Notes under the pieces: generated by a model
Seen by the model: only the letters and a program-made list of their open reading frames with translations
The model's database searches: none
What the model was told of the DNA's origin: nothing
Made by a program: the position numbers and the translations under genes
In this document: one piece after another, positions 54,155-54,415 of the stretch
Numbering within the stretch: position 1 is the first letter of the stretch
How the letters are laid out: every line of letters begins with the position of its first letter
Origin: Escherichia coli
GTDB taxonomy: Bacteria; Pseudomonadota; Gammaproteobacteria; Enterobacterales; Enterobacteriaceae
Length of the DNA stretch: 64,000 bases
Reading direction: 5' to 3' (one strand)
Assembly (NCBI RefSeq): GCF_003334335.1
Contig: NZ_QOWQ01000012.1

Positions 54155-54201
54155 AAAACACTCCTTTAAGACAGTTTTGACTGGCTGTGATAAAGGTTAA
54201 A

Positions 54202-54220
54202 CCTTCCAGCAAGGGGAAGG
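54202..54220. promoter_or_regulatory. CueR operator dyad within the copA promoter
   Basis: CCTTCC-N7-GGAAGG (ccttccagcaaggggaagg) about 50 bp upstream of the copA start codon, matching the MerR-type CueR box. Confidence 0.7.
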
Positions 54221-54415
54221 TCAAGAAATTAATAAACCAGGCGGGTAAAAGTCCGTAAAGATTAAAAAATCGGCTCGATTTGCATCAGGATTAGACATTT
54301 ATCTCTTTGTTTTCCTGTAGTTAAGTTGCGGGTGCTAAGTTAAATCAGGATGCCTGAAAATCGGCACCGGGGTGAGGAATTACCTCCCGCATCTATAAAA
54401 AGGAGTTAACAAAAG

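Follow-up and report, generated by a model that had tools for sequence, protein, structure and literature searches.

Whether copper and acid-stress regulation meet in the short region between the copper exporter gene copA and the glutaminase gene glsA of Escherichia coli, and how the regulator gene cueR came to lie beyond a glutaminase operon that separates it from its own operator, are the questions raised by this locus. It is a textbook case of MerR-type metal sensing, and the link between copper and acid bears on how cells survive stomach acid and the phagosome. The locus is the well-studied K-12 copper-pump promoter with its CueR switch, and both its layout and the copper/acid link have already been published; confirming these facts adds little. 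The additions made here are modest: the boundary of an insertion is mapped, from which the glutaminase operon appears to be a late arrival separating cueR from the operator; the spacer between ybaT and cueR is recognized as a gene stump; and the junction appears to have been reused by many mobile or accessory elements. The insertion boundary, the stump and the hotspot together put the question of cueR transcription in E. coli more sharply.

Organization and Conservation of the Locus

The stretch of DNA analyzed (hereafter the window) comprises 64,000 nucleotides, and its positions 51650-57175 are 100% identical to positions 508875-514400 of the MG1655 genome (NC_000913.3). Genes were called from open reading frames (ORFs) and from the RefSeq annotation of identical or near-identical records, which give the following arrangement:

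51650-54154, minus strand: copA, Cu(I)-exporting P-type ATPase of 834 aa (ORF list, RefSeq annotation; identical to MG1655 b0484)
54155-54415: copA/glsA intergenic region of 261 bp
54416-55348, plus strand: glsA (ybaS), acid-activated glutaminase A of 310 aa (ORF list, RefSeq annotation)
55351-56643, plus strand: ybaT, APC-family permease of 430 aa (ORF list, RefSeq)
56768-57175, plus strand: cueR, Cu(I)-sensing MerR-family regulator of 135 aa (ORF list, RefSeq; identical to MG1655 b0487)

The gene order copA, glsA-ybaT, cueR proposed in an earlier, sequence-only reading of this DNA agrees with both the ORFs and the RefSeq annotation, and the ybaT start does lie 2 nt past the glsA stop, as had been claimed (stop at 55348, start at 55351). 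The same reading put the intergenic region at about 260 bp, close to the 261 bp measured, and was correct in stating that two promoters must be accommodated within it; it also placed cueR about 2.5 kb away, and 2.55 kb separate the CueR dyad from the start of cueR. This four-gene locus was described by Permina et al. (2006), together with a Salmonella copA-cueR pair that lacks ybaS and ybaT.

The intergenic region is present in 5423 of 5426 complete E. coli genomes at an identity of at least 95%. Rfam covariance models gave no match within 54155-54415 at E <= 1, and the only Rfam matches across 51000-58000 were REP-type naRNA4 elements downstream of copA. The intergenic region is also overlapped by short ORFs (23-41 aa), which have no support as genes.

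The copA Promoter and Its CueR Operator

The copper-responsive side of the intergenic region is composed of the following elements, of which the two promoter hexamers were read from the sequence:

54202-54220, no strand assigned: CueR operator core CCTTCC-N7-GGAAGG (exact match CCTTCCAGCAAGGGGAAGG)
54201-54221: full 21-bp CueR dyad ACCTTCC-N7-GGAAGGT
54219-54224, minus strand: PcopA -35 TTGACC, sharing 3 bp with the operator dyad
54194-54199, minus strand: PcopA -10 TAACCT (AGGTTA on the plus strand), 2 bp from the CueR box

The CueR dyad that had been noticed at the copA promoter is therefore exact, and the motif CCTTCC-N7-GGAAGG has this single match in the 64-kb window even when one mismatch is permitted (0.06 expected; any match occurred in only 5 of 100 shuffled sequences). 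On the minus strand, the -35 and -10 are separated by a spacer of 19 bp (54200-54218) that holds the dyad, and copA transcription probably starts at about 54186-54188. A generic sigma-70 promoter scan of 54000-54600, in which only spacers of 16-18 bp were allowed, gave no match; it is silent at PcopA because the spacer there is 19 bp long. The CueR dyad is kept beside copA in all 63 related loci that include the copA start. A dyad, the 19-bp geometry, copA immediately downstream and cueR in the same genome are thus found together, as expected of a CueR operator-promoter.

The same features have been seen in the cryo-EM structure of the CueR activation complex, in which PcopA has a 19-bp spacer, the core CCTTCC-N7-GGAAGG, a 3-bp overlap with the -35 and a distance of 2 bp to the -10 (PMC8169799). 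Activation by CueR in a Cu(I)-dependent manner has been reported for an identical PcopA sequence (PMC8169799). A CueR dimer would occupy the dyad within the over-long 19-bp spacer of this MerR-type promoter, and Cu(I)-bound CueR would bend and untwist the DNA in such a way that both the -35 and the -10 become usable for sigma-70 RNA polymerase. Beside the operator there is also a rightward promoter-like sequence, TGTGATAAA, which could feed CueR-controlled transcripts toward glsA.

A Probable Insertion into an Ancestral Divergent Pair in Escherichia

To place this arrangement among related genomes, 80 Enterobacteriaceae loci around cueR were compared, and copA, glsA, ybaT and ybbJ were located in each. 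In 46 of the 80, copA and cueR are directly divergent, with a gap that is mostly 94-115 bp and at most 227 bp. Most of these divergent loci read GGTCAAG-GGGGGAAAT-ATG/GTG up to the start of cueR (on the cueR side, GGTCAAGGGGGAAAT-ATG/GTG); the copA -35 there directly adjoins the ribosome-binding site of cueR, and about 13 nt lie between the end of the CueR box and the first base of cueR (...GGAAGGTCAAGGGGGAAAT-ATG/GTG). Because the box lies so close to cueR, the ancestral cueR transcript must have started either at the operator or upstream of it, as happens in mer operons.

The glsA-ybaT pair occurs only in the Escherichia loci among these 80. E. coli leaves the ancestral sequence one base past the -35, where GGTCAAG is followed by AAATTAAT, and rejoins it at cueR, which delimits one block:

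54226-56767, plus strand: Escherichia-specific inserted block containing the glsA control region, glsA, ybaT and a secretion-gene stump

The block has a G+C content of 51-56%, lower than that of copA (58-60%) and of cueR (about 59%). It is likely that glsA-ybaT was not original to the copper module and represents an Escherichia-specific insertion, which would have hit the gap of about 10 bp that parts the copA -35 from the ribosome-binding site of cueR.

The last part of the block is informative about its possible origin. Comparison by blastn and by translation with E. whittamii and with E. coli SCPM identifies the following remnant:

56673-56771, plus strand: 3′ stump of a gene for an HlyD-family type I secretion adaptor

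The stop codon of the stump overlaps the cueR start (ATGA), and a RefSeq pseudogene is annotated in the 124-bp ybaT-cueR spacer. The deletion junction that K-12 carries between ybaT and cueR is common to 4458 of 5426 E. coli genomes. About 965 genomes (approximately 18%) give a split ybaT-cueR match, and the two of these that are listed have an HlyD-family gene directly upstream of cueR. Strain CB6886, the one of them inspected in full, retains, upstream of cueR, intact genes for the siiEA giant adhesin, the secretion ABC protein and HlyD, which total more than 20 kb. Most probably, glsA-ybaT arrived with, or beside, a type I secretion island for a giant adhesin, and K-12 has since lost that island by deletion. 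The compactness of the copper module, for which the sequence-only reading gave about 3 kb, is a state of the lineage, seen where the K-12 ybaT-cueR junction is present.

The same junction holds other cargoes in other genera, namely a TonB-dependent heme receptor with ChuW/HutW, argH plus dcu transporters, a TrkH family protein, a 5′-nucleotidase-like gene, and an integrase-bearing element flanked by a repeat of about 22 bp that corresponds to the right half of the operator. In two loci the whole operator is duplicated, with one copy at copA and one at cueR. Within E. coli, strain 24A16CRGN010 carries a 34.6-kb P2-family prophage between copA and glsA; the prophage is flanked by a 20-bp direct repeat, CCAGCAAGGGGAAGGTCAAG, which consists of half of the CueR operator and the PcopA -35, and the complete operator is regenerated on its copA side. 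Judged by these sequences, the copA/cueR junction appears to have taken many independent insertions, including one of a P2-type prophage.

The glsA Promoter and Its Acid-Stress Regulators

The ChIP-exo coordinate system used by Seo et al. is taken here to be that of U00096.2, as judged by the positions of gadE and slp, and the offset between U00096.2 and NC_000913.3 is presumably 776 bp. Peaks were placed in the window by subtracting 456449 from the published coordinate, and a published sigma-54 motif falls exactly at the place predicted by this conversion. In those ChIP-exo data GadW, GadX and RpoS occupy the ybaS promoter, and the ybaST peak spans 510790-510823 in U00096.2 coordinates (Seo et al., 2015 and its supplement; PMC4918353). 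The control region of glsA can then be described as follows:

54260-54335, plus strand: conserved upstream part of the glsA control region (E. coli/E. albertii conservation)
54266-54274 and 54284-54291, plus strand: first copy of two repeated words, AAAATCGGC and ATCAGGAT respectively, within 54260-54335
54336-54341, plus strand: candidate glsA -10 TAAGTT, preceded by a C at 54335, a sigma-S-type feature
54341-54374, plus strand: GadW/GadX/RpoS ChIP-exo footprint (converted peak), 42-75 bp upstream of the glsA ATG
54344-54351 and 54357-54365, plus strand: second copy of the repeated words, ATCAGGAT and AAAATCGGC respectively, within the footprint
54369-54386, plus strand: predicted small hairpin in the glsA leader, GGGGUGA-GGAA-UUACCUC (from the fold)
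54401-54405, plus strand: glsA Shine-Dalgarno sequence AGGAG, after the leader hairpin

The glsA promoter appears to be sigma-S-like, and the silence of the sigma-70 scan of 54000-54600 is uninformative. The sequence TGCTAAGTTAAATCA (54333-54347), which surrounds the candidate -10 and is invariant in the alignment of E. coli and E. albertii, may act as a sigma-S-type -10, with a glsA start near 54346 or 54369. The conserved part at 54260-54335 may serve as an activator site. In E. albertii, ATCATGAT stands in place of ATCAGGAT at both copies, and cores of the form ATGYCTRA were recognized by eye at 54351-54358 on the plus strand (ATGCCTGA) and at 54291-54298 on the minus strand (ATGTCTAA). The fold of 54347-54440 (-23.6 kcal/mol, z = -2.5) is weak evidence for the leader hairpin; the three differences between E. 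coli and E. albertii in the hairpin comprise two in the stem, each changing a G-U to an A-U pair, and one in the loop.

Motif scanning of 54155-54415, which the sequence-only reading had proposed for CueR and Gad-type sites, found the former, whereas the matches for GadX/W were at background level and those for GadE borderline at best. The best match differs from the GadX/W consensus AKGKCTGWTWTTWWYMYVAK at 5 positions, and a match as good occurs in 83 of the 245 tiles of equal size into which the window was cut. GadE was scanned with two consensus strings, TTAGGATTTTGTTATTTAAA and TTARGAWWWWAAATA; the best match to the 20-mer in the region has 9 mismatches in 20 (equalled in 149 of 245 tiles), and the best match to the 15-mer has 3 in 15, which is borderline (equalled in 17 of 245 tiles, or about 7%). 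The ChIP-exo study reported no GadE peak at ybaST, and ybaS mRNA was unaffected in single knockouts (Seo et al., 2015; PMC4918353). Taken as a whole, the glsA-ybaT promoter, some 120-150 bp to the right of PcopA and occupied by GadW, GadX and RpoS, would serve glutamine-dependent acid resistance.

Two Promoter Modules in One Intergenic Region

The two regulatory systems occupy separate parts of the region. The PcopA/CueR module is confined to 54194-54224, the glsA footprint to 54341-54374, and some 145 bp lie between the latter and the middle of the CueR operator. When E. coli is aligned with E. albertii, PcopA and the operator are invariant over 54187-54231, the sequence of 54232-54259 has diverged, and 54260-54415 is conserved again. 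Thus, it is very likely that the region comprises two independent back-to-back promoter modules that were brought together by the Escherichia-specific insertion, and that copper and acid are linked mainly in trans. The suggestion that copper and acid-stress regulation cross-talk here holds in that such cross-talk is real and already published; an overlap of sites within the 261 bp, the other part of the suggestion, is unsupported by the sequence. It is possible that the two divergent promoters are coupled through supercoiling, which counts against their being independent modules.

The link, as published, is a physiological one. Papers citing Djoko et al. (2017) relate from that study that ybaST is up-regulated by copper and protects against it, that copper inhibits glutamate synthase, and that the rescue of copper-stressed cells by glutamine requires YbaST; a review of that work states that the copper induction of ybaST has no direct association with CueR. 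In the acid direction, pH 2.5 induces copA, cueO and cueR along with ybaST, and the sensitivities cross over: cells deleted for cueR are sensitive to acid, and cells deleted for ybaST to copper (Kim et al., 2022; PMC9628877). Copper would damage glutamate synthase, YbaS and YbaT would restore glutamate from glutamine, and acid would in turn induce the cue genes. The interplay between copper and acid most likely runs mainly through metabolism and global regulators, and a route through CueR acting on the glsA promoter is not likely. Action of CueR on glsA at a distance was considered separately and is unlikely, given the spacing of about 145 bp, the diverged spacer and the statement of the review.

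Possible Cross-Talk in Cis

Two features, transcription that reads through into cueR and a candidate shared CpxR site, are possible means of cross-talk in cis beside the largely trans-acting link favored here. The former follows from the position of cueR. Acid-induced transcripts of glsA-ybaT, driven by GadX/W and RpoS, may continue into cueR and raise the dosage of the copper sensor in acid. On the plus strand, the ybaT-cueR spacer contains no terminator-like site and no sigma-70-like promoter; in the island-bearing form, cueR is coupled translationally through ATGA to the upstream HlyD gene; and in an H-NS mutant cueR is up 2.2-fold while ybaS and ybaT are up about 9-fold. The induction of cueR at pH 2.5 along with ybaST (Kim et al., 2022; PMC9628877) and the ybaS-ybaT-ybbI operon described by Permina et al. 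point in the same direction. At least partial read-through from glsA-ybaT into cueR would fit these observations. However, cueR may instead be driven by a published sigma-54 site inside ybaT or by a promoter in the 124-bp spacer that escaped recognition, and a rise in CueR protein would not by itself switch on copA in the absence of Cu(I). An acid-controlled increase in sensor dosage is therefore a possibility to which we give clearly less than even weight. It is tempting to extend it to a fuller history, in which the insertion cut cueR off from an operator-overlapping promoter and left its dosage to acid-regulated read-through, at a junction that is a hotspot and a P2-type attachment site; as a whole, this history is rather doubtful.

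The second candidate lies in the diverged spacer between the two modules:

54245-54259, plus strand: CpxR consensus box GTAAAagtccGTAAA, an exact GTAAA-N5-GTAAA direct repeat

This box (GTAAAAGTCCGTAAA) is the only exact match in the 64-kb window, where 0.07 would be expected, and is the only candidate for a shared cis element within the 261 bp. It sits between the PcopA and glsA modules, centred some 65 bp upstream of the probable start of copA transcription, from where response regulators typically activate; its distance upstream of the two candidate glsA starts is about 95-117 bp. It was found in four E. coli lineages. The box went unremarked in the earlier reading of the region, and it has been published as a shared copA-glsA intergenic site with a PSSM score of 16.68, close to the 16.75 of the high-scoring proP site that bound CpxR in a gel-shift assay (PMC9600279). 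In a cpxA24 strain, qRT-PCR gave 0.08-fold glsA and 2.06-fold copA (PMC9600279). These values suggest a scheme in which CpxR-P modestly activates copA and represses glsA through 54245-54259, and in which copper and pH would both provoke the envelope stress that is sensed. On the other hand, glsA is also down in a cpxA deletion (0.29) and in a cpxR deletion carrying pnlpE (0.13) (PMC9600279), so that much of the effect is independent of CpxR; repression of glsA is opposite in direction to the reported copper induction of ybaST; and the box is absent from E. albertii. Cross-talk through this site is accordingly held to be rather unlikely.

The opposite extreme is that the adjacency has no regulatory meaning, the two units being fully independent and the copper/acid link purely metabolic. 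About 100 bp, including the non-conserved spacer, separate the modules; unrelated cargoes have been accepted at the same junction in other genera; the junction is also split in about 18% of E. coli genomes; and in the one island-bearing strain inspected in full, the distance from the operator to cueR is greater by more than 20 kb. Against this, essentially all E. coli have retained glsA-ybaT beside copA, and the copper and acid phenotypes are reciprocal. Complete independence is rather unlikely, about as credible as a role of the CpxR site.

Direct control by CueR, in which a rightward promoter left over from ancestral cueR overlaps the operator and drives glsA-ybaT and possibly cueR, is very unlikely: the ancestral proximity of the CueR box to cueR, the copper induction of ybaST (as related by papers citing Djoko et al., 2017) and the extended -10-like TGTGATAAA (54186-54194), common to E. 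coli and the equivalent position in Salmonella, would favor it, but the review denies a direct association of ybaST regulation with CueR, a TTGACC leader segment of about 25 bp that most loci with adjacent copA and cueR contain is missing in E. coli (as it also is in most other lineages with old insertions), the TG of the TGTGATAAA motif is lost in E. albertii, and the same bases form the copA transcript start, so that their conservation is uninformative about a rightward promoter. Two separate modules, linked mainly in trans, remain the preferred reading of the region.

Comparison with Known Systems

The PcopA/CueR operator of E. coli K-12 was reportedly described by Outten in 2000, by Petersen and Moller in 2000 and by Stoyanov in 2001. 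The operator analyzed here does not differ from it; sequence and geometry are the same, and it is the same locus (PMC8169799). The glsA promoter resembles the AR2 promoters of gadA and gadBC in its ChIP-exo occupancy by GadW, GadX and RpoS (Seo et al., 2015; PMC4918353), and it differs from these GadX/GadW-dependent promoters in that it has no strong match to the 20-bp GadX/W consensus. The box at 54245-54259 shares the exact consensus of the published CpxR boxes, among which the copA-glsA box is included, and is a candidate site by sequence and expression (PMC9600279). The gene arrangement and the idea of a copper-acid link are the same as those of Djoko et al. (2017), as known through citing papers, and Kim et al. 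(2022; PMC9628877); the link in these studies is physiological and does not amount to a demonstration that CueR sites and Gad sites overlap within the 261 bp.

The divergent copA/cueR pairs of Salmonella, Citrobacter, Enterobacter, Klebsiella and Kluyvera have the same operator and the same copA promoter as E. coli. E. coli differs from this ancestral form in that 2.5 kb are inserted right after the -35, cueR lacks the operator-adjacent start region, and the copA leader is about 28 bp shorter.

The archetype of the MerR family is the divergent merR/merT operator-promoter of Tn21/Tn501. Similarly to PcopA, it has a dyad in a 19-bp spacer and is activated by DNA distortion. As in the ancestral copA/cueR pair, transcription of the regulator gene runs divergently across the operator that its own product binds. 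In K-12, by contrast, the regulator gene is no longer adjacent, and mer-style autoregulation through a shared operator is consequently not expected.

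The copA gene and the divergent copA-glsA region

At the 5′ end of copA, the MG1655 annotation places a second, joined CDS for a soluble Cu(I) chaperone, CopA(Z), made by programmed ribosomal frameshifting. At the other end of the gene, three REP-type elements stand in tandem directly 3′ of the copA stop, with Rfam matches to naRNA4 and CssrE on both strands. The features concerned are as follows.

51360-51640, both strands: three tandem REP-type elements
53943-54154 (-): joined CDS, CopA(Z)
54245-54259, between the two promoters: CpxR box GTAAAagtccGTAAA, exact consensus, single occurrence in the window

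The CpxR box has been listed in print, as a predicted site, as common to copA and glsA (PMC9600279). Nearer to glsA, the word ATCAGGAT occurs twice upstream of the gene (54284-54291 and 54344-54351), and both copies read ATCATGAT in E. albertii; this parallel change could mean that the two words are binding sites for one factor.

In Escherichia sp. MOD1-EC7003 (locus L005, 5089-5583), the glsA gene itself survives only as a short remnant (a 45-aa match); copA, ybaT and cueR remain intact there, and so does the CueR box. In E. coli strain 24A16CRGN010, the annotation gives glsA as a pseudogene, interrupted by an internal stop.

Sequences acquired between copA and cueR

In other genera, many unrelated inserts have been taken up between the copA -35 element and the start of cueR (loci L010, L053, L062, L028, L056, L064, L043 and L052), and the cargoes found at this junction include heme uptake genes with ChuW, argH with dcu, a gene for a member of the TrkH family and one that is nucleotidase-like. 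The entire CueR operator is present twice in L043 and L052, with one copy on each side of the insert.

Among the comparison loci L003-L082, the copA leader, measured from the start codon to the CueR box, is mostly about 75 nt where cueR still adjoins copA, although it is 61-62 nt in Kluyvera despite the same adjacency. A TTGACC segment is conserved within the long leaders, and most lineages with an old insertion, Escherichia included, have a leader of 37-51 nt without this segment. The short leaders are consistent with loss of an ancestral cueR -35 element.

The ybaT-cueR side holds two further features.

56080-56096, sense strand within ybaT: sigma-54 promoter-like motif CTGGCACTGGTTTTGCT, about 680 bp upstream of cueR
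56673-56771 (+): truncated type I secretion gene of the HlyD family, of which the 3′ stump forms the ybaT-cueR "intergenic" spacer

An intragenic sigma-54 ChIP-seq peak has been reported at the former (Bonocora 2015), and the motif could drive transcription of cueR. The stop codon of the HlyD-family stump overlaps the cueR ATG. Among complete E. coli genomes, about 18% do not have the K-12 form of this junction; CB6886, the sole such strain examined in full, retains at the ybaT-cueR position an island that exceeds 20 kb and carries the siiEA giant adhesin, the ABC gene and the HlyD gene.

A phage attachment site at the CueR operator

In E. coli 24A16CRGN010 (locus L087), a 34.6-kb P2-family prophage is inserted between copA and glsA.

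L087, between positions 293 and 34910: P2-family prophage
L087, 275-294 and 34890-34909: two att core copies, equivalent to window 54206-54225

The prophage is flanked on both sides by the 20-bp direct repeat CCAGCAAGGGGAAGGTCAAG; the attachment site of the phage therefore consists of the CueR operator's right half together with the PcopA -35 element. Integrase-bearing elements of Citrobacter and Enterobacter (loci L013, L021 and L039) carry the analogous repeat.
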